Numbered from the stretch's first letter, positions 8,212-59,028 are shown. The stretch is DNA of 64,000 nt from an uncultured Actinomycetes bacterium (GCA_963725665.1 CAVRZA010000006.1:288001-352000); one strand, 5' to 3'. The notes: a model not told the origin generated them from the letters alone. Numbers and translations are program-made.

Positions 8212-9084
8212 GTGAACGACCAGACCGAAGAGCAGGGACGCGGCGTCGGCTTCACCGTCACGCAGGCGCAGCGGCTGCGCGAGCTGGGGGCCGGCGAAGC
8301 GCAGCTTTCGCTGCGCTTCGCCGGCCCGCCCGACCGCGACGCCGCCTTCAAAGCGCTCGAGAACGAGCTCACGCGGGCGGGGCGCCGGCGGCTCGCCGCG
8401 CTGCGCGAGGCGGGGCGCCGGCGCCCCGCCCTGTCGGAGCTCGCAGAGACGCTCGCCGCGCGCGTGCGCGAACTCGGCTTCGTGCAGGTGGTCACACCGG
8501 CGATCATCACGCGCGACGCCCTGCGGCGCATGGGCATCGGCGCCGGGCATCCTCTCGCCGAGCAGGTCTTCTGGCTCGAGGGCGAGCGCTGCTTGAGGCC
8601 CATGCTGGCGCCCAACCTCTACACACTCTGGCGCCGCCTCGCGCGCGTGTGGCCGCTGCCGTTCGGGATCTTTGAGATCGGCTCTTGCTTCCGCATGGAC
8701 ACGAAGGGCAGCACGCATCTGAACGAGTTCACGATGATGAACCTGGCCGAGCTAGGCACGCCGCTCGCGCGCCGTCAGGAGCGCATCCGCGAGCTGGCCC
8801 ACGCCGTGATGCAGGCGGCGGCCGTCGGCGACTACGACCTCGTCGAGAAGGAGTCGGAGGTCTACGGCGACACCCTCGACGTGCTCGCCGGGTCGGCCCG
8901 GCTCGAGGTCTGCTCGGCGGCGATGGGGCCGCACCCACTCGACGAGGCGTGGGGCATCGTCGATCCCTGGGTCGGACTCGGCTTCGGTCTCGAGCGCTTG
9001 CTCCTCGCGCGCGAGGACGAGACCACGATCGAGCGCGTAGGGCGCAGCCTGAGCTACCTCGACGGCGTGCGCCTCAACCTGTAG
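8212..9084 (+). CDS. pylSc: Pyrrolysyl-tRNA synthetase catalytic subunit (bacterial split type)
   Basis: TQAQRLREL N-terminus, CLRPMLAPNLY, HLNEFTMMN, YGDTLD, WVGLGFGLERLL, SLSYLDGVRLN. Confidence 0.96.
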   Translation: MNDQTEEQGRGVGFTVTQAQRLRELGAGEAQLSLRFAGPPDRDAAFKALENELTRAGRRRLAALREAGRRRPALSELAETLAARVRELGFVQVVTPAIITRDALRRMGIGAGHPLAEQVFWLEGERCLRPMLAPNLYTLWRRLARVWPLPFGIFEIGSCFRMDTKGSTHLNEFTMMNLAELGTPLARRQERIRELAHAVMQAAAVGDYDLVEKESEVYGDTLDVLAGSARLEVCSAAMGPHPLDEAWGIVDPWVGLGFGLERLLLAREDETTIERVGRSLSYLDGVRLNL

Positions 9085-9085
9085 C

Positions 9086-9124
9086 GCGAGCGGGCGGCCC
9101 GCCTGCGGCGGGCCGCCCGCTCGC
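9086..9124. terminator. 18-bp inverted repeat between convergent pylSc and corrinoid gene
   Basis: gcgagcgggcggcccgcc-tgc-ggcgggccgcccgctcgc. Confidence 0.7.
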
Positions 9125-9143
9125 CTGTCTCGACGAAGCTTCC

Positions 9144-9788
9144 CTACGCGCCGACGAGCTCCGTAATCTTCTTGACGCCGTCGTTGGCGTCCTCGGCGTA
9201 GGCGTCGGCGCCGATCTGGTCCGCCCACCGCTGCGTTGCCGGGGCTCCACCGACGACGACCTTGTACTTGTCGCGCAAGCCGCGCTCGAGCAGGACCTTG
9301 ATGAGCTTCTTCTGTTCCTCCATGGTGGTGGTGAGAAGCGCGCTCATGCCGATCACGTTTGCGCCGGTCTCCTCGGCCTTGCCGATGAAGGTGTCGATCG
9401 ATGCGTCGCGACCGACGTCGAAGACCTCGTAGCCGTGCGCCTTGAGGTAGGCGATGACGATCGCCTTGCCGATGTCGTGCACGTCGCCCTGCACGGTGCC
9501 GATCACGACCCTGCCCTTGGCCGCACCCGAAGCGCTCCCGAGAGCCTCGTTGCAGATGCGTGTGGCCGCGTCCATGGCCTGGGCGGAGAGCATGAGCTCG
9601 GGAAGGAACATCTCGCCGCTCTCGAACATCTCGCCGACCTCGCTGATGCCGGCGATGAAGCCGTCGTTCATGACCTCGGCGGGCGCCATACCGGCGGCGA
9701 TGGCGTCCTTCGCCACCTGAGCCGCCTTGTCGGCATCGGCGTTGACGATCGCATCGATCGCCTCGCGGACCATCTCGTCCTTCGTCAT
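9144..9788 (-). CDS. Methyltransferase cognate corrinoid protein (MttC/MtbC-like)
   Basis: Cap domain FLPELM, GTVQGDVHDIGK cobamide motif, SALLTTT, VGGAP. Confidence 0.93.
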   Translation of the reverse strand: MTKDEMVREAIDAIVNADADKAAQVAKDAIAAGMAPAEVMNDGFIAGISEVGEMFESGEMFLPELMLSAQAMDAATRICNEALGSASGAAKGRVVIGTVQGDVHDIGKAIVIAYLKAHGYEVFDVGRDASIDTFIGKAEETGANVIGMSALLTTTMEEQKKLIKVLLERGLRDKYKVVVGGAPATQRWADQIGADAYAEDANDGVKKITELVGA

Positions 9789-9995
9789 CCTTCGACTCCT
9801 TCTCGACGTCGACCTCGGTCCCCCTACCGCAGGGCCGGCCGGACGCGCCTGTGACGCGTCGCCGGCGACGATCCTCCCACCGGACGACCAGGCAGGATCT
9901 GCTGCTGGAAGATCCCGCCTAGTATACCGAACGGCTCGCCCCAAGAACGACAGCGGTCGGAGCCCGACTCGAGCCTGTGGTAGAGTCTCCGAGCC

Positions 9996-10874
9996 ATGCG
10001 CTACGTCGGCTCCGTCATCCGCCCCCCCAGCGAAGCATCAAGCCTCATCGTGCAGGTCACCTACGGTTGCTCCAACGCGACCTGCGACTTCTGCGCCACC
10101 TACCTCGACAAGCCCTTCGGCATCCGGCCCTTCGCCGAGATCGCCGCAGACGTCCGCGGTCTGACACCTGGGGTCAAGGAGAGGACGCGGCGCGTCTTCC
10201 TCGCCGACGGCGATGCCGTCGCGCTCTCGCCGCGCCGCCTGCACGAGATCCTCGAGCTGCTGCATGCCGAGCTGCCGCGGCTCGAGCGCGTAAGCTCCTA
10301 CGCCAACGCCCGGAACCTCCTGCGCAAGAGCGTCGGGGAGCTGCGCTCACTGCGCGAGGCTGGGCTGCAGCTCGTCTACCTGGGTCTGGAGTCGGGAGAC
10401 GACGAGACCCTGCGGGCGATCCACAAGGGCGTGACTGTGGCCGAACAGATAGAGGGCTGTCGCAGAGCGACGGAGGCGGGCATAGGGTTATCCATCACCG
10501 CCATCCTCGGGCTCGCCGGCGCCGAGCGCTCACTGATCCACGCACGCGCCACCGGCGAGGCGCTCTCGGCCATCGACCCCGAGTTCATCGGCGTGCTCAC
10601 CCTCATGGTCGTGCGCGGCACGGGCATGGCCTCCCGAGTCGCAAGCGGCGAGTTCGCCGCCCCCGACGTGCTCGGCATGCTGCGCGAGCTACGCGAGATC
10701 GTCGCGTCCACCGAGGTCAGCGACTGCCTCTTCCGCTCGAACCACGCCTCGAACTACCTGCCCGTCGGTGGCCGGCTCCCCGACGACAAGCGGGCCATGC
10801 TCGCCGCCCTCGACGCCGCCCTGGCGACCCCCGAAGCGGCCGCCCTGCGACCCGAGGCTTGGCGGCTGCTCTAG
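9996..10874 (+). CDS. Radical SAM protein, function unknown
   Basis: IRPPSEA.S, GCSNATCDFC, FLADGDA, GLESG, FRSNHASNY. Confidence 0.9.
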   Translation: MRYVGSVIRPPSEASSLIVQVTYGCSNATCDFCATYLDKPFGIRPFAEIAADVRGLTPGVKERTRRVFLADGDAVALSPRRLHEILELLHAELPRLERVSSYANARNLLRKSVGELRSLREAGLQLVYLGLESGDDETLRAIHKGVTVAEQIEGCRRATEAGIGLSITAILGLAGAERSLIHARATGEALSAIDPEFIGVLTLMVVRGTGMASRVASGEFAAPDVLGMLRELREIVASTEVSDCLFRSNHASNYLPVGGRLPDDKRAMLAALDAALATPEAAALRPEAWRLL

Positions 10875-10889: not shown

Positions 10890-11234
10890 CTAGGCGCTGG
10901 AGTCGTCGCGGTCGAGCAGGTGTGAGCCGTACCCGCGGTTGAAGCGGGTGGCGGCGTACTTGCGCTGCTTCCACTCGGGGATGCTGCACTGGGGGCAGGC
11001 GGCGAAGAACCACTTGTTGCGCAGCCAGCGTGCGGCACGGCTGTTCTTAGAGTCGTGGATGACCATGCGCTTGTTGCAGTGCGTCGTGACGTGAGCGTAG
11101 GAGCCGTGCACCTCGAACTCGCGCACGCCGTGCAGTACCCCACGGCGCGAGGGCCAGAGCTTCATCTTCGCGACGAGCCTGAACAGGGGGACTTGCTTTC
11201 GGTAGTAGACGCGCTTGTCGGGGTCTGTGGGCAT
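10890..11234 (-). CDS. pylSn: Pyrrolysyl-tRNA synthetase N-terminal subunit
   Basis: KMKLWPSRRGVLHG, THC, SKNSRAARWLRNKW, CPQC.IPEWK. Confidence 0.95.
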   Translation of the reverse strand: MPTDPDKRVYYRKQVPLFRLVAKMKLWPSRRGVLHGVREFEVHGSYAHVTTHCNKRMVIHDSKNSRAARWLRNKWFFAACPQCSIPEWKQRKYAATRFNRGYGSHLLDRDDSSA

Positions 11235-11433
11235 CGCCTGTCGTCCGCCGGCTGGTAGTGCGTGATCACGCTTGATTCTAGCAGGCGGCACGAGCGGAAG
11301 GCAGGGACCGGTTCGGCGGTCAAACGGCTGCGAGATCGGATCCGGCCATCACCTCACATCGCGGCGATCGCCGGCCGAAGAGGAGCTACCCGGGACCCCG
11401 CGAACTGGTGAGCGGGCGGATTGGAGGTCGACG

Positions 11434-12339
11434 ATGAAGAGAGTCCACTGGTTGATCGTGACCGCGGCGATGATCATGGCGGTCGGGCTGGTCGCCGGCT
11501 GCGGCGGCTCATCGCCAGGCGCCACGCCGAGCGGCGCCGAGACGACGAGCGCCCCGGCGACGAGCGAGCCGCCGCAGACGACCAGCCCGACCACGACCGC
11601 CACGCAATCCCCCTCCCCCTCGTCCACTAGGACGCTGACGGTGGCGCTCTACTTCCTGCGCGGCGAGTATGTGGGAGTGGCGCACCGCACGATCCCGCAC
11701 ACGCTGGCCACCGGCAGCGCGGCGATGAAGCTGCTCGTCGCGGGACCGAACGCCGCCGAGAAGTCGGCCGGCCTGGGAACGACGATCCCCGCCGGGACCG
11801 AGTTCCTGGGACTCGTCGTCAAGAACGGCATCGCCACCGTCGATCTGTCGAGCACCTTCGCCAGCGGCGGCGGCAGCTTGTCGATGTTCACGCGGCTGGC
11901 TGAGGTCGTCTACACGCTCACCCAGTTCCCGTCTGTGAAGGGAGTCAACTTCAAGCTCGACGGCGAGAAGGTGACCGTCTTCAGCGCCGAGGGGATCGCC
12001 CTCGACCACCCGCAGACGCGCGCCGACTACGAGGAGCAGACCCCGGCGATCCTCGTCGAGAACCCGGCCGTCGGTGACACGGTCTCGAGTCCCATGCGCC
12101 TCAGCGGGACGGCCAACGTGTTCGAGGCGGTCTTCCAGATGAAGCTCGTCGACGCCAACGGCAAGATCCTCGCCAAGGGCATGGTCCAGGCGACCTCGGG
12201 GACCGGCACCAGGGGCACCTTCTCGACGCCCGTGCTCTTCGCCCCCACCACGCCGACTGGCAAGCTGATCGTCTACGAGGTCTCGATGAAGGACGGTTCG
12301 GCCATGAACGTGGTGAGGATCCCGCTGGCGTTCAAGTAA
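11434..12339 (+). CDS. GerMN + Gmad2 domain lipoprotein
   Basis: Lipobox VAGC, Ser/Thr/Pro linker, LVAGP..E..G, GGGS, VYTLTQF, GTANVFEA. Confidence 0.85.
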   Translation: MKRVHWLIVTAAMIMAVGLVAGCGGSSPGATPSGAETTSAPATSEPPQTTSPTTTATQSPSPSSTRTLTVALYFLRGEYVGVAHRTIPHTLATGSAAMKLLVAGPNAAEKSAGLGTTIPAGTEFLGLVVKNGIATVDLSSTFASGGGSLSMFTRLAEVVYTLTQFPSVKGVNFKLDGEKVTVFSAEGIALDHPQTRADYEEQTPAILVENPAVGDTVSSPMRLSGTANVFEAVFQMKLVDANGKILAKGMVQATSGTGTRGTFSTPVLFAPTTPTGKLIVYEVSMKDGSAMNVVRIPLAFK

Positions 12340-12362
12340 GACGAGGAACGCCCGCGGCAACG

Positions 12363-12399
12363 CGCGAGGGCCCCGGGAGCGACGCTCCCGGGGCCTTCG
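12363..12399. terminator. Hairpin between convergent genes
   Basis: gcgagggccccgggagc-gac-gctcccggggccttcgc. Confidence 0.6.
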
Positions 12400-12430
12400 C
12401 TCACCCGCCCTGGACCCGGCGCTCGCCCCC

Positions 12431-13625
12431 TCAGGCGCTCTTCACCTTCGTCCAGCACTGCGTGTAGTAGTCCATGAACGCACCGACGTCGTTCACGACC
12501 TCGCCGTACGAGAGCTGAGCCCCGGTCGGGTAGGCCTTGATCAGGATCTTGCTCTTCACGTGCTCGTAGGCCTTGGGCACGGGTGAGAGATACCACACGT
12601 AGTCAACCAGGTCGGCAGCATTCTTCGGCTCGAAAAGGAAGTTCATCAACAGGTGGGCGCCGTAGGGGCTGTTCGCCCCCTTCGGGATGCAGAGGTTGTC
12701 GATCCAGATGGTGTAGCGGGGCTTCGGCATGACGAAGGCCAGCTTGTCGAAGCCGATCTGGTCCTGCACGATGAGCGTGTCGGCGTTGAAGGCGTGCACC
12801 AGCGCGACGCCCTGTGTCATGTAGCGCTTCATGCTGTTGGTGTCGTAGGCGTTCACCAGGGGCTTCTGCTTGATCAGCTTCTTGGTCGCCGCATCGAGCT
12901 GCGCCGTGTCGGTCGAGTTCAATGAGTAGCCGAGGACAGCCAGCCCGGCACCCATCGTCTCGCGCATCTCGTTGTCCATGTTGATCTGGCCCTTCCAGGC
13001 CGGGTCCCACATGATCGTCCAGTCGGTCACAGGCTGCTTCACCTTGTCGAGGCGCACGCCGATGCCGGTCGTGCCCCACTGGTAGGGCACGCTGTACTTG
13101 AGGCCGCCGTTTTCCGTCTTGTTGTCGTACACCGGGTCCTGCAGCTTGGCTTCCACGTTCGAGAAGTTGGGGATGTAGCTCATGTTCAAGGGCTCAAGGA
13201 GGCCTGTCTTGATCATGATGTGAACCATGTAGTCAGACGGGCAGATGAGGTCGTAGCCCACCGCACCCGCCTTGAGCTTGGAGAGCAGCGCCTCGTTGTC
13301 GTCGAAGTAGGTCTCGACCAGCGTGATGCCCGTCTCCTTCTTGAAGTTCTTCACGGTCGCGGGAGCCAGATAGTCGGACCAGTTGAAGAAGTTGAGCTTG
13401 GTCGGCACCGTGGTGTCCATCGCCGACGGCGACGTGGGCGTGCTCGACGTCGACGAGGACCCGCAGGCGGAGAGCACTGCAGCCACCCCCGTGACCGAAA
13501 GGCCCATGACCAGGGCTCGCTCGATGAACGTATGCCTGGCTGATGCGCCCGTGCTTGACCTCGTCGATCAGCCCCGTGAGGTCCTTCCCACTGCAGACGT
13601 TCGCGGGCTCGGTCGAATCAGCCAT
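12431..13625 (-). CDS. PotD/PotF-like polyamine-binding lipoprotein (apparent 1-nt frameshift near 13537)
   Basis: FNWSDY, SVPYQWGTTG, WIDNLCIPK; upstream frame (LIDEVKHGRIS) matches the N-terminus of the paralog at 62716-63885. Confidence 0.85.
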
Positions 13626-13893
13626 ATCCCCCACTCCCCCTCACAGGTCCCTTCGCCAGGCTCGCTCGCCGCCCCGAACATACTACACAACAGAGACCGG
13701 CGCGGGGGCACCCGCGGACGAGGTGTGACAGCGCGCAGGCAGGTGCCCGCCCTGCTTGTCGCTTCGGGCACTAGGCGGAGTTGCGACCGACCCACTTCTC
13801 GCAGTTGGCGCGGCAGATCGTCACGAGAACGGCCTCATTCTTGGCGTTGGAGCACGAATACCGTACTCTCGTCTACGTCAGGAAGGAGGACGG

Positions 13894-14358
13894 ATGGCTC
13901 GCGCGCCGCTCGACGACACCGACCGACGCATCATCATGCATCTTCAAGAGGATGGCAGACGGCCCTATACGACCATCGCCGCCGATCTGGGCCTTTCTGA
14001 GGCCAGCATCCGCCAGCGTGTTGCCCGGCTGGTGCAGCGCAAGGTGATCCAGATCGTGGCCGCCAGCAACCCCCTGGATCTCGGCCTGCAGAAAGCCGAG
14101 CTGGGAATAGCGGTGATCGACGCCTCACCCACACGGCTCGCGGAGGAGATCGCAGCCTTCCCTGAGGTCGACTTCGTCGCCATCTGCGCCGGCTCGTTCG
14201 ACCTTATCGTCGGGGTCATCTTCCGCGACCGTGAGGAGCTGTTCGAGGTCCTGGTCAACAAGGTACGCGGCCTGTCCGGCGTCGCGCGCGTCGACGTCTT
14301 CCTCCATCTCAGAGTCGTGAAGGACACCTACGAATGGCCACCTGCCGCCGTGTCCTGA
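13894..14358 (+). CDS. Lrp/AsnC family regulator
   Basis: LDDTDRRII..LQEDGR...IA..LGLSE; SD aaggagg. Confidence 0.92.
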   Translation: MARAPLDDTDRRIIMHLQEDGRRPYTTIAADLGLSEASIRQRVARLVQRKVIQIVAASNPLDLGLQKAELGIAVIDASPTRLAEEIAAFPEVDFVAICAGSFDLIVGVIFRDREELFEVLVNKVRGLSGVARVDVFLHLRVVKDTYEWPPAAVS

Positions 14359-14653
14359 TGCGAGGACGGCGGCAGAAGCGTTAGACCACTGGTCATTCAA
14401 GACCCATCCTTATCGTCGCCCTATCCTGGCGAGCGACACGAATAGTGATGTCTTGCCTGGCCACCATACACGAATATCGTGTCGTTCTGCTGTTGACACT
14501 CCCGCTGCTTCGGAACAGAGTTCAGGCCGAGGGGCGGATGTCATTTGCGCTCCCGCGAGAAGCGCGACCGTGGCACACCGAACCGCGTCCGTAAGCGGTG
14601 AGGACAGCAGACTGGCGAGCTTCGCGAGTGCCTGGATCATGGAGGAGGGTGGG

Positions 14654-16435
14654 GTGCACTTCTACACAGGCAACGTGCTCAGGATCGATCTCAGCGCAGG
14701 CATCAGCAGGGTGGAGCCGCTCAAGATGGAGTACGCGCGGCTCTATATCGGCGGCAAGGGCCTCCTGCTCCGCTACATGTGGGACGAGGTCGAGCCGGGG
14801 CTCGACCCCTGGTCGCCCGAGAACCCTCTCTACCTTGTGACCGGCCCCTTCGCCGGGACGAACGTGACCACGTCGTCACGACTCGTAGTGGGCTGTAAGA
14901 GTCCGAAGACCGGCCTCTTCAACGACAGCTACGTCGGCGGCTCCTTTGCCCCTGAGATGAAGTTTGCCGGCTACGACATGATCGTCGTCACGGGAAAGGC
15001 ACCAGAACCCATCCTCGTCACCGTTCGCGACGACGTGGTGGAGTTTCAGACGGCAGGACAGTACTGGGGCATGAAGACATCCGAGATCGAGGAAGCGGTG
15101 CGGCGCGACTTCGACGCGGACGCGAAGGTGCTGTCGATCGGACCGGCGGGCGAGAACCTGATCACCTATTCGTGCATCTCGACCGACCAGTACCACAAGG
15201 CTGGCCGGGCCGGGCCGGGCGCAGTGATGGGGGCCAAGAACCTGAAGGCGATCGCGATCCGAGGCACGGGCAGGGTCACCGTGGGCAACGCGCGTGCCTT
15301 CCTGGAAGACATCCGGCGCATCCACAAGGAGTACATCCTCACCGACGACAACTTGTGGGCCCACGAGGAAGGCACCCCGATCCTCGTCGACATCATCAAT
15401 GGCGGCGGCGCTCTCCCCACCCGCCACTACTCGACGGGATCGTTCGAGGGCGCTACGAAGCTCAACTCTGAGTCGTTCCAGAAGATCCGCGTCAAAAAGC
15501 GCGCCTGCTACCAGTGCGCCATCGCGTGTCGCAACTTTCACGCCGTGCCGGGCGCGCGTGGTGAGGGCCCCGAGTACGAGACCATCGCGCTAGGCGGTGC
15601 GAACTGCGGCATCGATGACATCGGGGCCCTGATGAAGTTCAACGCCGACTGCGACGAGTACGGGCTCGACACGATCTCGACCGGGGCGTGCATCGCCTTG
15701 GCCATGGAGATGACCGAGAAGGGCATCCACGACTTCAGCCTGCGCTTCGGCGAGGTCGACGGCTATGTGAAGGCGGTGCCCCTAATAGCGAAGCGCACGG
15801 GTATCGGTGTCGACCTCTCCCTCGGCGAACGGGCCCTCGCGACGAAGTACGGCCATCCGGAGCTGGCGATGGAGGTCAAGGACCTGGAGTTGCCGGGCTA
15901 CGATCCGCGAGGCGCCTTCGGCATGAGCGTGACATACGCCACCTCCGACCGGGGCGGCTGTCACATGCGATCTTTCCCGGTGGGCCAGGAGATCGTCGCC
16001 GGCACGCTGCCCGCCGACACACTCGAGGGGAAGGCAGACTGGATCATCCGCTCCGGCACCGGGGGACAGGACTTCTTCGCCCTCAAGTTCAGCGGCATCT
16101 GGTGTGACTTCTGGGCCATCGACGTCAATCAGATCTCGCAACTCATGAAGCACGTCTGGGAGCGCGAGGTGAGCGAGGACGAGCTCATGCGCACCGGCGA
16201 GCGCATCTGGAACCTGGGCCGTCTCTTCAACCTGCGCGAAGGGGTGGACGACGACGACCTGCCGGAGCGCATCTTGAGTGAGCCTCACCCCTCGGGCGCG
16301 GCCGCCGGACGCGTGATCGGACGCGAGGCATTCGCAGCTGCCCTGCAGGAGTACTACAGCCTGCGCGGGTGGGACGAGAAGGGCGTGCCGGGCGAGGCCA
16401 AGCTGGCCGCGCTCGGCGTCGACGTCCGCCTCTAG
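14654..16435 (+). CDS. aor: Aldehyde:ferredoxin oxidoreductase (W/Mo-pterin), copy 1
   Basis: KSP.TG, IGPAGEN, MGAKNLKAI, CYQCAIAC, GPEYET, DEYGLDTIS, PGYDPRG, RGGCH. Confidence 0.93.
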   Translation: MHFYTGNVLRIDLSAGISRVEPLKMEYARLYIGGKGLLLRYMWDEVEPGLDPWSPENPLYLVTGPFAGTNVTTSSRLVVGCKSPKTGLFNDSYVGGSFAPEMKFAGYDMIVVTGKAPEPILVTVRDDVVEFQTAGQYWGMKTSEIEEAVRRDFDADAKVLSIGPAGENLITYSCISTDQYHKAGRAGPGAVMGAKNLKAIAIRGTGRVTVGNARAFLEDIRRIHKEYILTDDNLWAHEEGTPILVDIINGGGALPTRHYSTGSFEGATKLNSESFQKIRVKKRACYQCAIACRNFHAVPGARGEGPEYETIALGGANCGIDDIGALMKFNADCDEYGLDTISTGACIALAMEMTEKGIHDFSLRFGEVDGYVKAVPLIAKRTGIGVDLSLGERALATKYGHPELAMEVKDLELPGYDPRGAFGMSVTYATSDRGGCHMRSFPVGQEIVAGTLPADTLEGKADWIIRSGTGGQDFFALKFSGIWCDFWAIDVNQISQLMKHVWEREVSEDELMRTGERIWNLGRLFNLREGVDDDDLPERILSEPHPSGAAAGRVIGREAFAAALQEYYSLRGWDEKGVPGEAKLAALGVDVRL

Positions 16436-50492: not shown

Positions 50493-51896
50493 ATGCTGAA
50501 GATACGCAACTTCGAAGCACTGATCTCGCACGGAGAGACACATTCCAGGAGGGTGGTGCTGGAGATTGCCGACAAGACGCTGCGACGGCTGGACGCATAC
50601 AGCAGGATAGGGAGCATCGCGCACCTAGACGGGTCTTCCCTGCACATCGGGACACGGACTTGGGACCTCTCGAAAAAGAGGCATGTGTACCTCGTCGGCG
50701 CCGGAAAGGCATGCAACGCGATGGCTGCCGCGCTCGACGAGATCCTCGGCGACAATCTCAGCAAGGGGATCGTGATCGTCAAGGTCGCGGAGGAGGCAGA
50801 CGTCTTCAGGCACACAGACGTCTACGTGGGTGGGCACCCACTGCCCAACCGGACGGGCTACGAGGCCTCTCTGAAGATCCTGGAACTCGCGGACCAAGCG
50901 GGGCCCGAGGACCTATTCATTGCAGTGATCAGCGGGGGGAGCTCAGCTCTGATGAGCTGTCCGGTCCAGGGAATCTCAACACAGGACGAGATAGACGCAA
51001 CAGATGTTCTGCTGAAGTCCGGGGCCGGCATCTATGAGATCAACGCGATTCGACGCCACATATCGCAGACGAACGGCGGCATGCTGGCTAAGAGAATCCA
51101 AGCTTCCGGTGCTGAGCTGATCGGCTTTGGTATCTCCGACGCTGTCGGGAACCCGCCGACGGGCGACATCGGAATCCCGTGCCGGAACTACGCAAGCACG
51201 CCGATCGGTCCCGATAGGACTACCATTGCTGAGGCCCGGCGCGTCATCGCCGACTATGACTTGGCTGATCGGCTGCCCCCCAACGTAGTCCGGTACCTCA
51301 TGGAGGCAGGTGAGGCTTGCGAGACGCCCAAGGCATTCCCGGACAACACCTATTATCTGCTTAACACCGTGCCCGATTCGTGCATCTACGCAAGAGAGGT
51401 GGCGGAGGAGATGGGGATCCCTGCCTACATCCTGACTTCCTTCCTCGAGGGTGAAGGCAAGGATGCCGGCACCCTCTTCGCCTCGCTTGCCCGTGAGGTA
51501 CAGGCCTACGGAAACCCCTTCCCCGCACCGTGCGTTATCCTCAGCAGCGGGGAGACGACGACGAGGATCCTGGAGAACTCCGCTGTTGAAGGGCACGGGG
51601 GACCATCGCAAGAGCTCACCGCGAGCTTCGCGATCAGCGCCACGAAGGCTCCCGGGGTGTGCATGTTGTCGGTGGACTCGGAGGGAACTGACGGGACCAC
51701 AACCGTGGCCGGCGGGCTCACTGACTCAAGCAGCTACGAGGCGGCCATGAAGAATGGTGTAAGCCTGCATGCCGCGTTGCGGGGTCACTTCTGCTACGAA
51801 GCATTGGAGGCTATCGGCGACACCGTGATCACTGGCAACACGGGAACGAATCTCTGCGATTTCAACATTCTCTACGTCCCGACTCTTGAGAACTAG
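50493..51896 (+). CDS. Glycerate 2-kinase (MOFRL/TtuD type)
   Basis: GAGKA, GHPLP, ISGGSSAL, GETT, SEGTDG, TG.TGTN. Confidence 0.9.
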   Translation: MLKIRNFEALISHGETHSRRVVLEIADKTLRRLDAYSRIGSIAHLDGSSLHIGTRTWDLSKKRHVYLVGAGKACNAMAAALDEILGDNLSKGIVIVKVAEEADVFRHTDVYVGGHPLPNRTGYEASLKILELADQAGPEDLFIAVISGGSSALMSCPVQGISTQDEIDATDVLLKSGAGIYEINAIRRHISQTNGGMLAKRIQASGAELIGFGISDAVGNPPTGDIGIPCRNYASTPIGPDRTTIAEARRVIADYDLADRLPPNVVRYLMEAGEACETPKAFPDNTYYLLNTVPDSCIYAREVAEEMGIPAYILTSFLEGEGKDAGTLFASLAREVQAYGNPFPAPCVILSSGETTTRILENSAVEGHGGPSQELTASFAISATKAPGVCMLSVDSEGTDGTTTVAGGLTDSSSYEAAMKNGVSLHAALRGHFCYEALEAIGDTVITGNTGTNLCDFNILYVPTLEN

Positions 51897-51947: not shown

Positions 51948-53216
51948 ATGAAGATCGAATCTCTGCGGGCACGGCAGCTTATCGACTGCATGTGCCGGCC
52001 AATGGTCGAGGTCGAGGTCGTGACGGAAGGAGGATTCGTCGGCAGAGGCGCAGCGCCTACCGGCCAGTCCGTGGGGATGCACGAGGCCTTCGTGCTGCGG
52101 GATAACGATCCTGACGTGTACAACGGGCTCAGCGTTCACCGGGCGGTAGAGAACGTCCGGCACGTAATCGCGCCGGCCCTGATCGGGATGCCGGTCGACG
52201 ACCAACGCGCCCTCGACGACCTGATGATCGCCCTCGATGGGACAGAGAACAAGAGCAACCTGGGCGGTAACGCCATCTACTCGACCTCGATCGCCTGCCT
52301 CAGGGCTGCTGCTGCCGCCGCCGGTCTGCCCCTCTATCAATATCTCGGGCGGGAGCGTCTCAAGACGGTTCCAGTACCAAGTTTCAACATGGTGAACGGG
52401 GGACGATACCGCGACTTCGTACAACCGTTCAATGAGTTCATCGTCATGCCCTACAAGGCAGAGTCCATCTTTGAAGCGGTGGAGATGGCGGTCGATCTCT
52501 TCGACGTGATGTCTGGCGTTCTAGAGGAGCACCTCGGATCGTCTCCGAAGGTGGCGCGCTCCTATGGCTACGTTGCGCCGTCTGAGGATCCTGAAGTCGT
52601 CCTTTCGTTGATGCAGGAGGCGATCGATCGCTGCGGGTACGCGGACAAGATGGCCTTCGCCCTCGACTGCGCCTCGAGTGAGATGTACGACAGCGCGACC
52701 GCGACCTACTACCTCAAGGGGGGGCGGGTTGGCACTGACGAGCTGATTTCCTACGTCAAGGACCTGACCGAGACGTTCAACTTGGTGTTCGTGGAGGACC
52801 TCCTGGACGAGAACGACTGGGACGGCTATCCACGTGCCGTGAGGCAGATTCCCCGCACCATCATTCTTGGAGACGACCTCATCGCTACGAACCTGGCGCG
52901 TCTTCGGAAGGCGACAGCCATGGGGGCGATCGAGGGATTTGTCTTCAAGCCCAATCAGATCGGGACGATCTCGGAGGCCTTGGAGACCTATGAATACGGG
53001 GTCGCACACAACCTCGTCGCAGTCCCCTCTGGGCGCTCGGGCGGTGTTGTCGATGACGTGGTCATGGACCTATCGGTCGGACTCCAGGTTGCATTTCAGA
53101 AGAACGGCGCGCCACGGTCGGGAGAGCGGATCGAGAAGCTCAACTTCCTCATGCGTGCTGCTGACTCAATTCCTGACTGCTCCCTGGCAGATGTAGTCAG
53201 CATCGTGAAGTTCTAG
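51948..53216 (+). CDS. Divergent enolase homolog
   Basis: LGGNA, PVP.FN..NGG, LDCASSE, VED, GDDL, KPNQIG, RSG; several canonical catalytic residues changed. Confidence 0.88.
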   Translation: MKIESLRARQLIDCMCRPMVEVEVVTEGGFVGRGAAPTGQSVGMHEAFVLRDNDPDVYNGLSVHRAVENVRHVIAPALIGMPVDDQRALDDLMIALDGTENKSNLGGNAIYSTSIACLRAAAAAAGLPLYQYLGRERLKTVPVPSFNMVNGGRYRDFVQPFNEFIVMPYKAESIFEAVEMAVDLFDVMSGVLEEHLGSSPKVARSYGYVAPSEDPEVVLSLMQEAIDRCGYADKMAFALDCASSEMYDSATATYYLKGGRVGTDELISYVKDLTETFNLVFVEDLLDENDWDGYPRAVRQIPRTIILGDDLIATNLARLRKATAMGAIEGFVFKPNQIGTISEALETYEYGVAHNLVAVPSGRSGGVVDDVVMDLSVGLQVAFQKNGAPRSGERIEKLNFLMRAADSIPDCSLADVVSIVKF

Positions 53217-53280
53217 TGCCGCGACTAGATCTCGTGCCCCCCGCGCAGCGTACCCACCCTGTGGCGCAAACGCCTGGCTT

Positions 53281-53502
53281 GGCTTCTCCGACAGGGGAGC
53301 CGTCCTCGCCGATCGGGTGGTGGCCGCCGCCATCCTGAACTGCCTCTTGCACCACGCCACCGCGGTGAACACCAAGGGCAAGAGCTTCCGCATGGGGCGG
53401 CTTCAAGATCAAATCGACAAGGAGAGAGGCGGCGCTGCTGTGGTCCAAGGGAGCTCTGCACTCTTCATGAGCGGCTCACTGCACTTCTCGTGATCGCCTG
53501 CA
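53281..53502 (+). mobile_element. IS21-family remnant (istB 3' end and right end)
   Basis: Translates FSDRGAVLADRVVAAAILNCLLHHATAVNTKGKSFRM (IstB C-terminal AILDRLLHH...GESYR type); repeated ctgcact motif, ending in CA. Confidence 0.75.
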
Positions 53503-53530
53503 GCCGCGGCTCTGGTACTCGGCGCAGCCA

Positions 53531-53821
53531 GTGGAGAGTGGTCAGCGCCACCTGGCCCACCAGGCCGCTCGCACACAACGGGCCTGCGCGCTCTTCACCG
53601 ACTCGGATGGTATCGACGGCGCGACCGACGCGGCGGGGGGCCTGGTCGACGACCTCACCGTGCGCGAGGCGGGCGAGCGCGGCGTCGATATCGGCGCGGC
53701 CCTGGCCGCGCACACCTCGAAAGACGCGCTCGCCCGCCTCGCCGATCTCGTCCTCACCGGCCCCACCGGCACCAACGTCAACGATATGAAGATCCTGCTG
53801 AAGGCCGCGGCAGCGCGTTGA
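53531..53821 (+). pseudogene. C-terminal (MOFRL) fragment of a glycerate kinase
   Basis: DSDGIDGATDAAGG...LVLTGPTGTNVND; N-terminus missing. Confidence 0.82.
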
Positions 53822-53863
53822 TGCCCGGGATCGGGCAGGCCGACAGCTTCGCCGAGCCGCGGA

Positions 53864-54268
53864 TCAGCCGAATCCGAACGGTCCCCACAGGTAGAAGACG
53901 ACCGCGTTCCCGACGCCCGCGGCCAGCGTCATCAGCAGCGCCACGCCTGTGATCCACGCCGATGAAGAGTGCGGCCGTCCGCGCCGGCCCGCAGCGAGCG
54001 CAAGAAGCACCAGCGCCACCGCGTCGGCGGCGCCGACGACGATGTAGATCGCCGGCGTCCAGAGGGTCCGCACCGCCTCATCCGGGTGAGCGAGGAACGC
54101 CCACAGCACGAACGCGAGCGAGGCCATGAGGATGACCAGCGCAGCCACGATGGAACCTCGGCGTGTGCGGCCGACGCGCAGGTTGTGCACGAACAGTTCG
54201 AGCGTCAGCAGCGGCCCCAGCCCGATGAGAAGCACAAGCGCGATGACGAGCACTGCGTTGCGTGGCAC
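53864..54268 (-). CDS. Hypothetical membrane protein (about 4 TM segments)
   Basis: Four hydrophobic stretches; plausible codon usage. Confidence 0.6.
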   Translation of the reverse strand: MPRNAVLVIALVLLIGLGPLLTLELFVHNLRVGRTRRGSIVAALVILMASLAFVLWAFLAHPDEAVRTLWTPAIYIVVGAADAVALVLLALAAGRRGRPHSSSAWITGVALLMTLAAGVGNAVVFYLWGPFGFG

Positions 54269-54468
54269 GGTACCCCCGTCGGTAGCCTGCGGTCGTCGGA
54301 CCCGCGAGCACTGACGCAATACTACAGGAGGCCGGCAGGGGCGACGCGAGGTTCCCCGGCCCGCGGAACGTTGGCGCCTCATGGCCCCAAGCGCCGTCCC
54401 TCGTCGCCACATGACGCAGACCGCTTATGCAGCGATGGGCACGACGTCGCCGCGCGCGCAGTGAAGAG

Positions 54469-55733
54469 GTGGCGGGCAGTGCGGGAGTTACACCCGCCTA
54501 CGTGATCCAGAATCCTCCTAAACTCATAAGAGATACGGTGAGCGGGTCTTTTCGAGCCTAGAAGCGCAGATTAGGGGAGGCAAACCGGCCTGCGCTGAGC
54601 CTACTGTCAAACACCTCGTCAAACACCTAGACGCGCTACGCGCGGCCAGTCCGTCCCTCCGCAACGGGCAGCGGCGCTTCATCAGGGCAAGCGGCTATGC
54701 CCCGTCGAGTCCCTTAGGGGCGGCGGGAGGCTCGGCCGGGCGGCCTTGCTCGTCAGCGGGAGGTCGTCAGACGACTGGACGCTCACCTGTGTTGTCGCGG
54801 CGGGGCGTCTATGCAGTTGGAGGCGGCGTCGTCGTGACTGGCAGTCACCTGCGATTCTGCGCCCTTAGGACCAGCAGGCCTATGCCAAGCATGACCACGA
54901 GGGCGACCAGAATGATGAGGGGTCCTATGATTCCGCCTCCTATGTCCGTCGTCTTGGTCAGCTTAGCAGACGGTGGGTCATGACCGGATTGGCCCCCTAC
55001 CCGCCCGCGCCCTGGCCCCTGCGCTCACCCGTGCCGTCGTGGCGGTCGCCTGCTGGAGCCGGAGGCGGGCCGATGGTGGTGGCTATCTTCGCCGCTTCCT
55101 ATCGAGCGCGACCACGGCAGCGATGCCGGTACACAGGAGAGCCGAGAAACCAGTCGAGCCAGCCGGAGAAGACCACAGACGCCCACAGGGACAGCGCCAC
55201 GCACGGGTCCCCCTAGAGCTGCCGCCGGAGCCACGCGGGGTCAGTCTCTTTCCTGAGTAGCGACCTCGGCCCACTTGGCGTCGGAGATGACGCCCGAGGT
55301 GTCGAGTTCGCGTCGGTCCAGTTCACGCTGTTCGTCCATGTCACCTCCCTCGCGCGATGAAGCCGAGCGCGCCGCCCGCAGCGAAGGCGAGGACGCCGAA
55401 GAACGGGAGGGCGAAGATGGTCATGAGGCTATTCCACTGGGTCGTCGTTCGATGGTCATGGGGCTATTCCTCTAGGTCGCGGTTGGCATCGTCGGGCGGC
55501 GGCACGATGGGGAGCTGGATGCGGAGCCTCACGCCCACCGGGGCTACGGGACAGCGGCACCGAGGCAATCGGCGTCGGCCTGAAGATGAAGAGCTACGAG
55601 GGTTGGCCGAAGACAGCGCCGGACGAGTGGTGTCTTGAGTTCGTCGAGCAGGCGACCTGACAAAGGTAGGAGGGCGGCTGTCTATCCGCGGAGTAAGAAA
55701 GTGGCGGGGAGTGCGGGAGTTACACCCGCCTAC
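54469..55733. mobile_element. ~1.2-kb remnant of an element integrated at the tRNA-Pyl 3' end
   Basis: 33-bp direct repeat 54469-54501 vs 55701-55733 (one mismatch); tandem GTCAAACACCT; only tiny ORFs (55241-55339, 55341-55424); no integrase. Confidence 0.8.
54606..54628 (+). repeat. Tandem 11-bp direct repeat, possible integrase arm-type sites
   Basis: GTCAAACACCT-c-GTCAAACACCT about 105 bp inside the att-like repeat. Confidence 0.55.
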
Positions 55734-55774
55734 ATGGATTTAGAGTCCATGCTGATCTTTCCGATCGACCCCCC
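55702..55774 (-). tRNA. pylT: tRNA-Pyl (anticodon CUA)
   Basis: GGGGGGU C GAUC GGAAA GAUC AG CAUGGA CUCUAAA UCCAUG UAG GCGGG UGUAACU CCCGC ACUCCCC G CCA: one base between acceptor and D stems, small D loop, 6-bp anticodon stem, 3-nt variable loop, no UUC; follows pylD. Confidence 0.97.
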
Positions 55775-55828: not shown

Positions 55829-56638
55829 CTACCGCAACCCCTCGAGTGCCATGGTCACAACGCCCAGGGCGAGCGGCTCGTGTATGTGGCGCTCGCCGAG
55901 AGCGGCGGCCGTTTCCAGACCCGCCGCCGGCGGGATCCCGGGGGCCGATACGATGCTGTCCGGAGTCACCCACTCTGCGGGGATGAGGTCGCCCACGGGG
56001 GCGGCGTCGAGGACCAGGTGACTGCGGGCGAGACCCTCGGCGAGTTCTACGGGTTGCAGACCGAGCTCCCGCGACACTCGCGCGAGCCGCGCGCGGTCGG
56101 GGTCGGCGGCGAGGGCGGTGGCGCCAAGCGCCACCGCCCTCGCCGCCGCGGTGCTGCCGACCGGACCGAGGCCGAGAATCAGAACCTCCTTGCCTCGCAG
56201 GCCCCCCGCTGCGGCGTCGAGCGCGGCGAGGAAGGCGCGCCCCGTCGCCTCACCGTTGTCGGAGCACACGCCGGTCGTGATATTGAGTGCGATGAAGCGC
56301 TCCTCGTCGGCCGCGAACACAAGCCGGGCGCCAGCCTCGGCGGCCTCGGCGAGGCCGGAAATGTCCGGATGCGCGGTCACCCAGGCATCGCAGCCCACGT
56401 GTCGGCAGATGCTGGCCACCGACTCAGAGAACCCTGAGATGAAGCCCTGGCCAGCGGAGATCGGCAGAGCGACCACCGGGGCATCCCTGAGGCGTTCGTC
56501 GGCCTCGTCCGACCGCAGATCCAGCGCGTGCGCGGCGATGGCCGCCAGACCGAGCCCGGTGGCACGCGCGAGCCGCTCATCGAGCCCAGCGACGCCGTCG
56601 GGCAGCCAGCGCACGTCGTCCTCCGTCAACCTCGTCAT
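55829..56638 (-). CDS. pylD: Pyrrolysine synthase
   Basis: MTRLT, P.SAGQG.I.GF, D..G, ADE.RF, NGEATG, GLGPVG, PG.P, HEPLALGV. Confidence 0.93.
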   Translation of the reverse strand: MTRLTEDDVRWLPDGVAGLDERLARATGLGLAAIAAHALDLRSDEADERLRDAPVVALPISAGQGFISGFSESVASICRHVGCDAWVTAHPDISGLAEAAEAGARLVFAADEERFIALNITTGVCSDNGEATGRAFLAALDAAAGGLRGKEVLILGLGPVGSTAAARAVALGATALAADPDRARLARVSRELGLQPVELAEGLARSHLVLDAAPVGDLIPAEWVTPDSIVSAPGIPPAAGLETAAALGERHIHEPLALGVVTMALEGLR

Positions 56639-56696
56639 CCGACGCCCCCCGCTCCTTTCGCGGTCCCTGCTCGAGCCGTGGACGATCCCCTGCGGG

Positions 56697-57914
56697 TCAT
56701 GGCTGTCCACCGCTCGCCACAGTCGCTGACCGAACCCCATGGGGGTTGACCTCAGGAAGCAGCCGCAACCCGCACTCCTCCGCGATGCGCGCCTCGACGT
56801 CGTGGGTGCGGCGGCGCGCCTCTGCGACATCGCCGCCGCGCACGATCAGGGTCGCCACCCACTCCCGCTCGCCCCCGTCGAAGTCCGTCATCGCCTCGTC
56901 GGCGCCGAAGAAGCCTTTGACAAGCTGCAAAGGCGGCGCGGAACCCATGACGTGCTCCCCCACCACCTGCAGCGCGTCTTCGCGGGCGCGCACGTGCTCG
57001 TAGACGACCCCGCGCAGTACGCGCCGGTTCGGTTCCGGTACGGCGCCGGTCGCGAAGGCCGCGACCAGCAGTTCGAGGAGATTGACGTCGTAAGCGTGCA
57101 GCACCGCGGCCGGCGTCTGGCTGGGAAGCCGGGCGTCGATCTCGATGACCTTCGCCTCACGTCCGGCGATCATCACCTCGACGTCCATGATGCCGCTCAG
57201 CCGCAGCTTCGCCGCAAGCCGTTCGCCGCTGTCGGCGAGCGACGCCAGCGCCTCCTCGACGACGTCCGCGTAGAACGCGTCCCCGGCAACCGGAGCCGTG
57301 ACACGCTTGCAGTCGAAGGCGTCGTCGAACTCGAGACCCGTGACCAGACACGGCACCGACCTGCCCTCGAGCGCCAGCACCTCGATGGAGAGCGAGGGGC
57401 CGGCCACGAACTCCTCGACGACGACCTCGTGGCCGGCCCGCTCGAGGTCGAGCCGGGCCTCCTCGAGCTCGCGCTCACTTGCCGCCACGCGCACTCCCTC
57501 GCTGCCGCTGGCGGCGCTCGGCTTGACCACCGCCGGCAGGCCGCACACCGGCCAGGGCAAAGGGGCCGGCACACCTAGCTCGCGCATGAGGTCGTTGGAG
57601 GCCGCCTTCGACGAGGTCACGCGATACGCCGACAGATCGAAAAGCAGCGGTACGCCGAGGTCTGGAGCGAGCCGCGCCAGCCTCTCGAGCGCCGCGTCGT
57701 CCTCACAGGCCGGCAAGACGGCGTCGCAGGAAGCCAGGAGCTCACGCGCCAGCGCCTCGTCACGCGTGACGTCGAGGAGGTGGCTCTCGGTGGCGAGGCC
57801 GGTGGCGGGACGTCCCTCGCGACGGTCGATCAGGACGGTCTCAAAGCCGGCCTTCAGGCCGAGGTAGCAGGCCTCCGTGCCCTGAAGCTTGCCACCGACT
57901 ACTCCGAGACGCAT
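56697..57914 (-). CDS. pylC: 3-methylornithine--L-lysine ligase (ATP-grasp)
   Basis: VGGKLQG.EA.YL, PA.E, AY...SSK, KP...SGS.GV, DCKRV, EIDARLPSQTP. Confidence 0.95.
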   Translation of the reverse strand: MRLGVVGGKLQGTEACYLGLKAGFETVLIDRREGRPATGLATESHLLDVTRDEALARELLASCDAVLPACEDDAALERLARLAPDLGVPLLFDLSAYRVTSSKAASNDLMRELGVPAPLPWPVCGLPAVVKPSAASGSEGVRVAASERELEEARLDLERAGHEVVVEEFVAGPSLSIEVLALEGRSVPCLVTGLEFDDAFDCKRVTAPVAGDAFYADVVEEALASLADSGERLAAKLRLSGIMDVEVMIAGREAKVIEIDARLPSQTPAAVLHAYDVNLLELLVAAFATGAVPEPNRRVLRGVVYEHVRAREDALQVVGEHVMGSAPPLQLVKGFFGADEAMTDFDGGEREWVATLIVRGGDVAEARRRTHDVEARIAEECGLRLLPEVNPHGVRSATVASGGQP

Positions 57915-57936
57915 GGACCTGCCTTTCGCGGCCGCC

Positions 57937-59028
57937 TCAGACCGCGATCGAGGCCATCTGGCGCGCTTTGGTGGCGTCCACCCACTCGCCGTACTCGGCG
58001 GCGTCGGCGGCCTCGAGCCCTAGAGCCGGCAGGTGCTCGGTGACGCCGGCGACGCTACGCAGACCGGCGTCGATGTCGAGCTCCGACTGCGAGACGCCGC
58101 ACAGGCCCGACGAGGGCGGCACGAGCGAGGTGACGACGCTGGCGCCGGCCTCGAGGCGCGCCTCGAGGCCGGCGATGCCCTCGACGTCGAGCGAGGCCGG
58201 GATAAGGCGTTCGGGCATCACGAGGCGCATGCATGCGATCACGAGCTGCTCCTCGAGCACACCGACGCTCGTGAGCCCCGCGAGCGGCGTGCCCGGCTGG
58301 GGCACGAAGCTCATGACCCGCACCTGGGCGAGCGGCTGGCGGCGCATCTCGAGGATCGAGTTGGCGCGGTCGGCGAAGGTCTCACCGACGCCGATGAGGA
58401 TGCCGTCTTCGACGAGGAGGCCCGAGCGCGCCGCCGCGCTGCGCGCGGCGGCGCGCTCGTCGTAATCCTGCCGTAGCCGAAGGCGCGCGTAGAGGTCGCG
58501 CGTGTGCGTCTCCTGGTAGCATGCGTACCAATCGGCGCCGACGGCCGCCAGCTGGGCGAGGACGTCGTCGGGGACGACGCCCGGAGAGACCATGACCGGC
58601 AGGCCGACCTCGCGCCTCACCGTCGCCACGAGGTCGACGAGAGCGCTGAAATCGCGCGCATCGTGGATCAGGGGATCCTCGCCCATGGTGAGGTCGAGGA
58701 GGTGCACACCCGAGTCCGCCAGATCGCGGCATACGGCGACCACCTCAGCGACCGACTTGCGGTAGCGCGGGCTCTCGGTGTTGTCGCGGCGGTAGAAGCA
58801 GAACGTGCACCAGTTGCGGCAGTACGTCGAGAAGTAGACGAAGCCGTAGAGGAAGACGCGGTGGCCGAAGTTCTCCTCACGCGCCGCGCGCGCGGCCGAG
58901 AACACCGCCTCGGCATCCTCACGCGAATCGATGCCCAGCAGACGCTCGAGCTCGCGAGGTGCGAGATCCTGGCCGCAACGAGCGCGCTCGAGGATGTGAA
59001 CGATCTCGGGGGAGGCCGACCGGGTCAT
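57937..59028 (-). CDS. pylB: Methylornithine synthase (radical SAM)
   Basis: YGFVYFSTYCRNWCTFCFYR, SGVHL.DLTMGEDP, YQET, MSFVPQ.GTP, IPASLDVEG. Confidence 0.96.
   Translation of the reverse strand: MTRSASPEIVHILERARCGQDLAPRELERLLGIDSREDAEAVFSAARAAREENFGHRVFLYGFVYFSTYCRNWCTFCFYRRDNTESPRYRKSVAEVVAVCRDLADSGVHLLDLTMGEDPLIHDARDFSALVDLVATVRREVGLPVMVSPGVVPDDVLAQLAAVGADWYACYQETHTRDLYARLRLRQDYDERAAARSAAARSGLLVEDGILIGVGETFADRANSILEMRRQPLAQVRVMSFVPQPGTPLAGLTSVGVLEEQLVIACMRLVMPERLIPASLDVEGIAGLEARLEAGASVVTSLVPPSSGLCGVSQSELDIDAGLRSVAGVTEHLPALGLEAADAAEYGEWVDATKARQMASIAV

Follow-up and report, generated by a model that had tools for sequence, protein, structure and literature searches.

A complete, apparently functional pyrrolysine cassette divided by native catabolic genes in a selenocysteine-decoding Thermoleophilia-type actinobacterium

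The pyrrolysine genes and their family layout

The DNA analysed here is a stretch of 64,000 nucleotides, called the window, from an uncultured Actinomycetes bacterium (GCA_963725665.1, CAVRZA010000006.1:288001-352000). It corresponds to G000:C6:288001-352000, G000 being the host genome. The window carries the genes of a pyrrolysine (Pyl) system: pylSc and pylSn for the two subunits of a split pyrrolysyl-tRNA synthetase (PylRS), the biosynthetic genes pylB, pylC, and pylD, and the tRNA-Pyl gene pylT. Between the pylSc-pylSn part and the pylBCD-pylT part lies a large block of catabolic genes, which includes a grd cluster with two selenocysteine (Sec) codons. The positions of all features are given in Table 1.

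Table 1. Features of the window, with positions counted from its first letter and the evidence for each
Feature	Position	Strand	Evidence
pylSc, catalytic subunit of split PylRS	8212-9084	+	TIGR02367 314 bits, cut-off 178, profile 1-242/242
pylSn, tRNA-binding PylRS subunit	10890-11291	-	TIGR03912 119 bits, cut-off 51
pylD	55829-56830	-	TIGR03911 211 bits, cut-off 150
pylC	56697-57914	-	TIGR03909 339 bits, cut-off 248
pylB	57937-59028	-	TIGR03910 448 bits, cut-off 348
pylT, tRNA-Pyl(CUA)	55702-55774	-	ARAGORN; G73 and CCA encoded
Partial pylT 3' copy, att-like direct repeat	54470-54500	-	31 nt, one mismatch
Inserted block, amine and amino-acid catabolism	12431-54469		Pfam; about 42 kb
grdA, selenoprotein A	29942-30399	-	PF04723 in two frames; Sec TGA 30268-30270
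Thioredoxin	30400-30720	-	Pfam, NCBIfam
grdC-like, component C beta	30781-32188	-	NF040746 413 bits, below cut-off 450
grdB-type selenoprotein B	32073-33350	-	PF07355 2e-117; TIGR01918 321 bits, cut-off 65; Sec TGA 32337-32339
grdE/grdG-type proprotein subunit	33360-34655	-	PF09338 2e-72
bacA	6062-6910	+	Pfam BacA 6e-82
N-acetylmuramoyl-L-alanine amidase, directly upstream of pylSc	7135-8199	+	Amidase_3 1e-40, PG_binding_1
Methylamine-type corrinoid protein (MttC/MtbC-like)	9144-9944	-	TIGR02370 223 bits, cut-off 215; B12-binding domains
Radical-SAM protein, 292 aa, uncharacterised	9996-10874	+	Pfam Radical_SAM 2e-15
Germane/Gmad2 protein; 3' end faces pylT in relatives	11272-12339	+	Pfam, synteny
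Nitroreductase-family gene directly upstream of pylB	59041-59697	-	Pfam 2e-34; TIGR02476 59 bits, cut-off 150

The five Pyl proteins were identified with NCBIfam equivalog models, and all five matched end to end with scores above the curated cut-offs. Residues 14-290 of PylSc aligned with the PylSc of Desulfitobacterium hafniense (3DSQ/2ZNI) over its full length with 337 bits, and the alignment with 3DSQ showed the motifs HLNEFTM.N, VYGDT.DV, and DPWVGLGFGLERLL. PylSn aligned with the N-terminal domain of the Methanosarcina mazei PylRS (5UD5) with 45 bits. The only tRNA called by ARAGORN in the window was tRNA-Pyl(CUA). In its cloverleaf, the acceptor stem has 7 bp and is followed by one linker base; the D stem has 4 bp and a loop of 5 nt, the anticodon stem 6 bp, the variable loop 3 nt, and the T stem 5 bp. 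We aligned this gene with 11 others from related loci (12 genes, 10 of them distinct). The cloverleaf was paired in 220 of 220 cells, and 10 of the 22 pairs varied on both sides. This result was never reached in 500 shuffles, and slid registers fell far short of it.

A full-length PylSc core, a separate PylSn, and a compact tRNA with a CUA anticodon were thus all found, as in the PylSn+PylSc class of split PylRS, and the PylBCD biosynthesis set was complete, with each of its three enzymes above the equivalog cut-off. The Pyl system is of the standard split-PylRS type and stands alongside a standard Sec system. This agrees with the initial annotation, which had described the five protein genes as intact and the tRNA-Pyl as canonical; the former is supported by the end-to-end model matches, the latter by the ARAGORN call and the fully paired, covarying cloverleaf. 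As members of their families, PylB, PylC, and PylD would build pyrrolysine from two lysines, and PylSc, aided by the separate tRNA-binding PylSn, would charge tRNA-Pyl(CUA). The charged tRNA would then decode the UAG that occurs once, in frame, in each of 14 methylamine methyltransferase genes elsewhere in the genome.

The initial annotation had further placed pylSc behind a cell-wall amidase gene, pylSn on the opposite strand, and pylT last, after pylBCD and far from pylSn. All of this was recovered, with pylT 44.4 kb from pylSn. It had also called the gene order unusual. We compared the layout by tblastn of the window proteins against nine pyl loci of the same family (G003, G008, G012, G014, G019, G021, G022, G024, and L024). 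Their shared order is a helix-turn-helix gene, bacA, the amidase gene and pylSc (both forward), the corrinoid protein gene (reverse), the radical-SAM gene (forward), pylSn (reverse), the germane gene (forward), then pylT, pylD, pylC, pylB, and the nitroreductase gene (all reverse), followed by an aldehyde ferredoxin oxidoreductase (AFOR) gene. Accessory genes were absent from some loci, and the amidase-pylSc adjacency and the pylB-C-D-T run were present in nine out of nine. A typical family locus spans about 8-10 kb. The distance from pylSn to pylD was 1.2-4.0 kb in 8 of the 10 family loci, G000 counted; the two exceptions were G000 with 44.5 kb and G022 with about 36 kb.

Borrel 2014 gives the usual bacterial orders as pylTScBCDSn or pylSnScBCD, and reports that the clusters can be interrupted, with pylB 0.7 Mb distant in one archaeon. 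The canonical contiguous order on one strand is absent from G000 and from the nine family loci. A genome from another family of the class (G032), with a PylSc only 49% identical to that of the window, has a compact one-strand pylT-Sn-Sc-B-C-D cluster, and an Eubacteriales metagenome-assembled genome (MAG) has the order Sc-D-T-B-C-Sn. Since the order is conserved in the nine family loci, only the large gap is specific to G000. The claim of an unusual order therefore holds against the published bacterial orders, but the layout is family-wide rather than a peculiarity of this locus, and only the 44-kb gap is special. As these loci present it, the gene order is a family-level variant, the ancestral layout of the whole family. 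No published description of this layout was found in a limited literature search.

Among the accessory genes, the corrinoid protein gene lies between pylSc and pylSn in eight of the nine family loci, and orthologues of the radical-SAM protein with 70-75% identity occur in seven (among them L023, L026, L030, L031, L034, and L035, that of L031 being partial). The radical-SAM protein has weak matches to B12-radical-SAM methyltransferases and has no B12 domain of its own; an Atlas search with it returned generic radical-SAM clusters only. No methyltransferase gene adjoins this corrinoid/radical-SAM pair. The nitroreductase gene was recovered by tblastn in six of the nine loci (L023, L024, L028, L031, and L035 among them) and also in L044. 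It is weakly BluB-like and could serve the supply of the corrinoid lower ligand. A variant layout was seen in G014 (L029:6056-9833), where pylT lies 2.9 kb from pylD, directly after the germane gene, and where the corrinoid and radical-SAM genes are absent.

Client genes, stop codons and the selenocysteine system

The genome has 31 matches to the MttB family, of which six contain one TAG. We aligned these six with five TAG-free paralogues. The TAG of five genes fell in a single column, within ..AG[A/L]-O-GDSK..DAQ, and the six compared paralogues that are free of TAG there carry ordinary residues in that column. The mttB match at C1:36714, whose TAG is codon 12 and precedes the conserved domain, was not counted as a Pyl gene. 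Eight matches to mtbB and one to mtmB each contain a single TAG; these two families were counted by the in-frame TAG alone. In total, 14 methylamine methyltransferase genes have an in-frame TAG (five mttB, eight mtbB, and one mtmB).

Our stop-codon count covered 1637 confident open reading frames (ORFs) of at least 200 codons, of which TAG terminates 646 (39%), TGA 902, and TAA 89. One further observation concerns an EF-Tu-like GTPase gene (G000:C2:97783-98992) beside an EF-G-like gene. It terminates in TAG and is followed by an in-frame, coding-looking stretch which is probably the next gene, so that a highly expressed gene has a UAG stop in a Pyl decoder.

For the Sec system, selD, selA, and selB were found at C11:541083-545907, with an in-frame TGA in selD itself, and the tRNA-Sec gene (selC) at C11:550041-550138. 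The bacterial Sec-decoding trait, selA, selB, selC, and selD, is thus complete in G000. The initial annotation had proposed a probable 22-amino-acid bacterium, to be checked by a search for selABCD and for TAG-interrupted mttB, mtbB, or mtmB genes. Both searches gave positive results, and the proposal stands in so far as both recoding systems and their client genes are present. Its novelty does not stand, bacteria with both Sec and Pyl having been known since Zhang & Gladyshev 2007. ARAGORN also called three unusually long tRNAs in G000, namely Cys(GCA) with 98 nt (C11:172357-172454), Glu(CTC) with 102 nt (C3:15504-15605), and Arg(GCG) with 88 nt (C2:328696-328783). These may have long variable arms, may be tRNA-Sec-like, or may be false calls.

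The inserted block and its origin

The interval between the germane gene and pylT is about 43 kb long in G000. Its genes encode solute-binding proteins, an ATP-binding cassette transporter, AFOR, saccharopine dehydrogenase, an aminotransferase, an M28 peptidase, a beta-eliminating lyase, and short-chain dehydrogenases/reductases, and further the grdE-grdB-grdC-trx-grdA cluster, an amine oxidase, an ornithine/diaminopimelate decarboxylase, LarA, ornithine cyclodeaminase, glycerate kinase, and enolase. The block is missing at this position in 8 of the 10 family loci. Fifteen of its genes form a syntenic 16-kb block in G003:C1 and G023:C16, away from the pyl loci of those genomes, with amino-acid identities of 60-83%, like those of the flanking core genes. 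The tetranucleotide correlation of the block is 0.991, as against a mean of 0.995 and a 5th percentile of 0.989 for random 42-kb pieces of the genome, and its GC content is 0.663, as against a 5th percentile of 0.657. Because of this native composition and family-level identity, we judge the block to be family-native DNA, relocated or exchanged within the family, and by the same measures it is neither a foreign segment nor an obvious chimera.

Two gene fragments were seen in the block. The fragment at 53471-53821 corresponds to a C-terminal MOFRL segment and shares 43% identity with the end of the glycerate kinase encoded at 50493-51896; that at 34817-35245 corresponds to a C-terminal part of a PotF/PotD-type binding protein. 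The two point to rearrangement or decay within the island. There are also two paralogous AFOR genes, one within the island (14453-16435) and one in the conserved flank beyond pylB (60615-62408), as in relatives.

The block ends at a partial copy of pylT. This copy covers the variable loop, the T arm, the 3' acceptor strand, and GCCA, and lies in the same orientation as pylT, 1.2 kb beyond the pylT 3' end. A repeat scan showed it to be the core of a 50-nt direct repeat (54455-54504 and 55687-55736). No other copy of pylT was found in the G000 genome, and a blastn search of the genome with 53200-55700 revealed no repeated element. Between pylT and its partial copy, at 55416-55484, two direct repeats of 34 nt lie side by side and are 85% alike.

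Related signs were found in two relatives. In G022, which has the other large gap, 109 nt separate the 3' end of pylT from the end of a tyrosine integrase of 454 aa, and the gap contains a second integrase fragment along with an IS3 transposase and a terminase-like gene. In G011, 45 nt of the genome's own pylT 3' end recur without a mismatch, and an integrase homologous to that of G022 (44% identical over 440 residues) lies 2.8 kb from this copy. Partial pylT matches in G096 and G010 were rejected as att copies, being tRNAs cut by contig ends (contig position 1-41 in G010). In G000, integrase hits lie beside other tRNA genes (C8:229876-230738 and the tRNA at C8:229729; C8:58950-59442 and C8:58775; C2:516442-517047 and C2:517158; C1:467459-468484 and C1:468624). 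In view of the 31-nt copy of the tRNA 3' half, and of two relatives with an integrase beside pylT or beside a partial copy of it, we propose that at least part of the insertion would stem from site-specific integration into pylT. On balance, pylT appears to be a recurrent integration site in the family. That the 42-kb block itself arrived or was assembled through integration at pylT, at least in part, is a more tentative suggestion, with the odds somewhat against it. No earlier account of tRNA-Pyl as an attachment site was found, though no literature search was aimed at tRNA-Pyl integration.

The grd cluster forms the Sec-dependent part of the island. The grdB frame requires read-through of one TGA, at residue 338, and this TGA is kept in orthologues of 4 of the 24 same-family relatives. 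The TGA of grdA lies within ECFV-U-TAAG, as it does in the orthologues. These results confirm the in-frame UGA at the Sec sites of grdA and grdB that had been noted initially, but as assembled grdA is broken in frame, and grdC is too. In grdA, one base is missing at 30163-30166, between the codons for LGAAD and DGIEM, where the window has two bases and G003 and G023 have a full codon; the orthologues in these two genomes are intact and in a single frame. In grdC, the break lies near 30930, and computed deletion of the base at 30930 unites both frames. We compared positions 12301-32300 with the Logan contigs of four environmental short-read runs. The matches were mostly short pieces, 90-95% alike, and so derive from relatives; one contig (200 nt, three mismatches, depth 2.8) lacks the base at 30930. 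An mtbB gene at C2:503975-505331 is similarly split in the G000 assembly. No grdD was recognised in the window by Pfam and NCBIfam scans, and the models for the Grd substrates (GrdF, GrdH, glycine) all scored far below their cut-offs.

With a probability of about 0.85, we read the window as a complete, functional-looking Pyl cassette of a Sec-decoding Thermoleophilia-type actinobacterium, its family layout apparently split by native catabolic genes beyond the pylT 3' end. About 43 kb of family-native catabolic genes, including grd, would have been placed just beyond this end and would account for the apparent split. A number of observations speak against this account or parts of it. No integrase, transposase, phage gene, or integrase remnant was found in the window by PF00589, by Pfam on unannotated ORFs, or by tblastn with the G022 integrases. 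The att-like repeats enclose only 1.2 kb of non-coding-looking DNA and not the 42-kb block, and a search for a third pylT copy near 12.4 kb, at the far end of the island, found none. In G022, no att repeats of at least 12 nt were found, and contig G022:C8 (L027:9629-12402) carries an artefactual run of 272 T followed by 2502 A, which makes its 36-kb gap less trustworthy. As for the grd breaks, read support for grdC consists of the one contig at depth 2.8, and none was found over the grdA break; neither break lies in a homopolymer, so true mutations are possible. Finally, TAG ends 39% of the long ORFs, yet the next in-frame stop is no closer than after TGA (median distance, 50 codons after TAG and 48 after TGA). 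These distances therefore do not explain how stop-UAG is kept apart from Pyl-UAG.

Ordinary intragenomic rearrangement or recombination, with the pylT copy left behind by some other small element or by a chance local duplication and unconnected with the island, is the strongest alternative for the insertion. We give it close to an even chance, and for the 42-kb block it is at least as likely as integration. The island is without mobility genes, its blocks are native to the family and stand in another arrangement than in G003 and G023, and the repeats bracket a short segment only, all of which fits rearrangement. It does not readily fit with an insertion exactly at a tRNA 3' end, with the DNA carrying an integrase that two relatives have at pylT or at a copy of its 3' end, or with homologous integrases next to other tRNA genes in G000.

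The Grd reductase might also be truly dead, with grdA and grdC as pseudogenes and the Sec part of the locus as a relic. Two frame breaks within 1 kb, both outside homopolymers, are in favour of this, as are the gene fragments at 34817-35245 and 53471-53821 and the fact that grdD was not recognised in the window. We nevertheless consider it unlikely, because a near-identical environmental contig carries grdC in frame, the orthologues in G003 and G023 are intact, another gene of the assembly (the mtbB on C2) has a similar single-base break, and the Sec machinery is intact, with selD itself a selenoprotein. The breaks in grdA and grdC are probably assembly artefacts, that is, single-base errors.

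It is very unlikely that the 44-kb separation is an artefact of a chimeric or mis-joined MAG contig. The MAG has an estimated contamination of 5.04%, single-base frame errors occur in the assembly, and no environmental short-read contig from the four runs (12301-32300) spans the junctions. However, the flanks are two halves of one conserved family locus, so that two precise mis-joins would be needed; the island genes are as close to their family orthologues as the flanking core genes are (60-83% identity), the composition of the island is within the range of the genome, and the 31-nt repeat is too short to fool a long-read assembler. The very common TAG stop (39%) and the cost of suppressing it might suggest that the Pyl cassette is a relic without function and that the methyltransferase genes interrupted by TAG are pseudogenes, but this is scarcely credible given six intact Pyl components conserved over 11 genera, a TAG in one conserved column of five mttB genes, and the reported expression of Pyl-encoding mttB and mtbB by peat Actinobacteriota MAGs (PMC10805028).

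Taken further, the reading of an intact Pyl cassette beside an inserted block leads to a broader and, in our view, rather improbable scenario. In it, pylT would be a recurrent tyrosine-integrase site in a Thermoleophilia family that is abundant in soils and wetlands and uses 22 amino acids throughout, one or more such events would have parked a Sec-dependent amine-reductase island by the Pyl operon, and the family might separate stop-UAG from Pyl-UAG in a way undescribed for bacteria. The last part is raised because of the 39% UAG stops and the position of pylSc in a cell-wall operon. If the island was indeed parked by integration, a possible trimethylamine- or methylamine-yielding reductase would be physically linked to Pyl-dependent methylamine demethylation.

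Host family and comparison with known systems

The G000 genome is a MAG of 3.73 Mb in 12 contigs with 68% GC and an estimated completeness of 97.5%. The closest named contigs come from MAGs of an 'uncultured Actinomycetes bacterium' and an 'uncultured Thermoleophilia bacterium', in keeping with the actinobacterial-type host that the initial annotation had proposed. On this sequence evidence the host is a member of a Thermoleophilia-type actinobacterial family.

We scored 40 relatives, 24 of the same family and 16 from other families of the class. PylSc above the cut-off was found in 21 of 24 same-family relatives versus 1 of 16 others, PylSn in 22 versus 1, and PylB in 19 versus 1; selA was found in 22 of 24 versus 10 of 16. 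PylSc and selA occur together in 19 of the 24 same-family relatives, in one of which selA is in two pieces. Of 88 further family genomes, 69 gave a match to the 73-nt pylT, with 11 of 11 genera represented. Neither PylSc nor pylT was found in the family members G009 and G018, and G000 was the sole representative of its genus among the 89 family genomes searched. In these genomes, Pyl and Sec are both the rule for the actinobacterial family of the host. A protein collection contained at least 1886 PylSc clusters (90% identity) at E<=1e-30. Among the matches listed, the top 120 PylSc homologues are 61-79% identical, except for one fragment of 200 aa with 96%. Some of the clusters bear NCBI names that identify them as the PylRS large subunit from MAGs of Thermoleophilia or Actinobacteria, one listed homologue being labelled 'pyrrolysine--tRNA(Pyl) ligase large subunit [Thermoleophilia bacterium]'. 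Sequencing runs in which parts of the window occur carry the labels sediment, soil, wetland, and peat; the shares were small throughout, and we base no habitat claim on them.

Pyl in Actinobacteria and Thermoleophilia is already known from print and from NCBI annotation. What is new here is the family-wide layout, the presence of PylSn, the 14 Pyl genes alongside 39% TAG stops, and the integration signs at pylT. These results indicate that both code expansions and a large set of Pyl enzymes are carried by an entire actinobacterial family that is abundant in the environment. This has a bearing on methylamine turnover in soils and wetlands, where such bacteria compete with methylotrophic methanogens for substrates. 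A bacterium with 39% UAG stops also offers a natural test case for tolerance of an amber suppressor, and the signs at pylT add a small point on the evolution of the cassette's neighbourhood. The understanding of how the Pyl or Sec systems work is unchanged by the locus.

Genomic islands targeted to tRNA genes, for example those associated with selC, have a duplicated tRNA 3' end. The window resembles them in that an intact tRNA gene is followed downstream by a direct repeat of its 3' half, and in relatives a tyrosine integrase lies by the tRNA. Unlike typical tRNA islands, the window has no integrase and its repeats enclose 1.2 kb only.

Three published accounts come close to the host described here. 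Guo 2022 (PMC9630628) counts 2 Actinobacteria among 81 bacterial PylRS genomes, and its supplement lists 'Thermoleophilia_bacterium' and 'Actinobacteria_bacterium_ADurb.BinA094', with the PylSn column empty for both. The entries share phylum, class, and the PylSn+PylSc type with the window. They list no PylSn, whereas the window has one, as do 22 of the 24 family genomes; this gap in the published catalogue is now filled, and the family layout is supplied. Ellenbogen 2023 (PMC10805028) reports peat Actinobacteriota MAGs that express Pyl-encoding mttB and mtbB, and these, too, are soil or wetland actinobacterial methylamine demethylators with Pyl methyltransferases. The sections of that account used here concern the methyltransferases, whereas the window concerns pylS, pylBCD, pylT, Sec, and gene order. 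Zhang & Gladyshev 2007 (PMC1976440) describe the delta-1 symbiont of Olavius algarvensis, which decodes both Sec and Pyl and has many Pyl genes. The symbiont differs from the host of the window in being deltaproteobacterial and marine and, by their account, in having a much larger selenoproteome.

A close likeness is to D. hafniense, in which PylRS is also split into PylSc and PylSn genes and whose PylSc aligns with that of the window over its full length, with the 337 bits given above. D. hafniense also uses Sec. The two share a tRNA-Pyl in which a single base separates the acceptor stem from the D stem, the D loop has 5 nt, the anticodon stem 6 bp, and the variable loop 3 nt, the list of compact tRNA-Pyl features used for this comparison being that of PMC11764691. 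They differ in arrangement. D. hafniense has the order pylT-pylSc-pylB-pylC-pylD-pylSn, while in the window pylSc lies behind the amidase gene and is convergent with pylSn, pylT follows pylD, corrinoid and radical-SAM genes stand inside the cluster, a 43-kb insert divides it, and the host is a high-GC actinobacterium.

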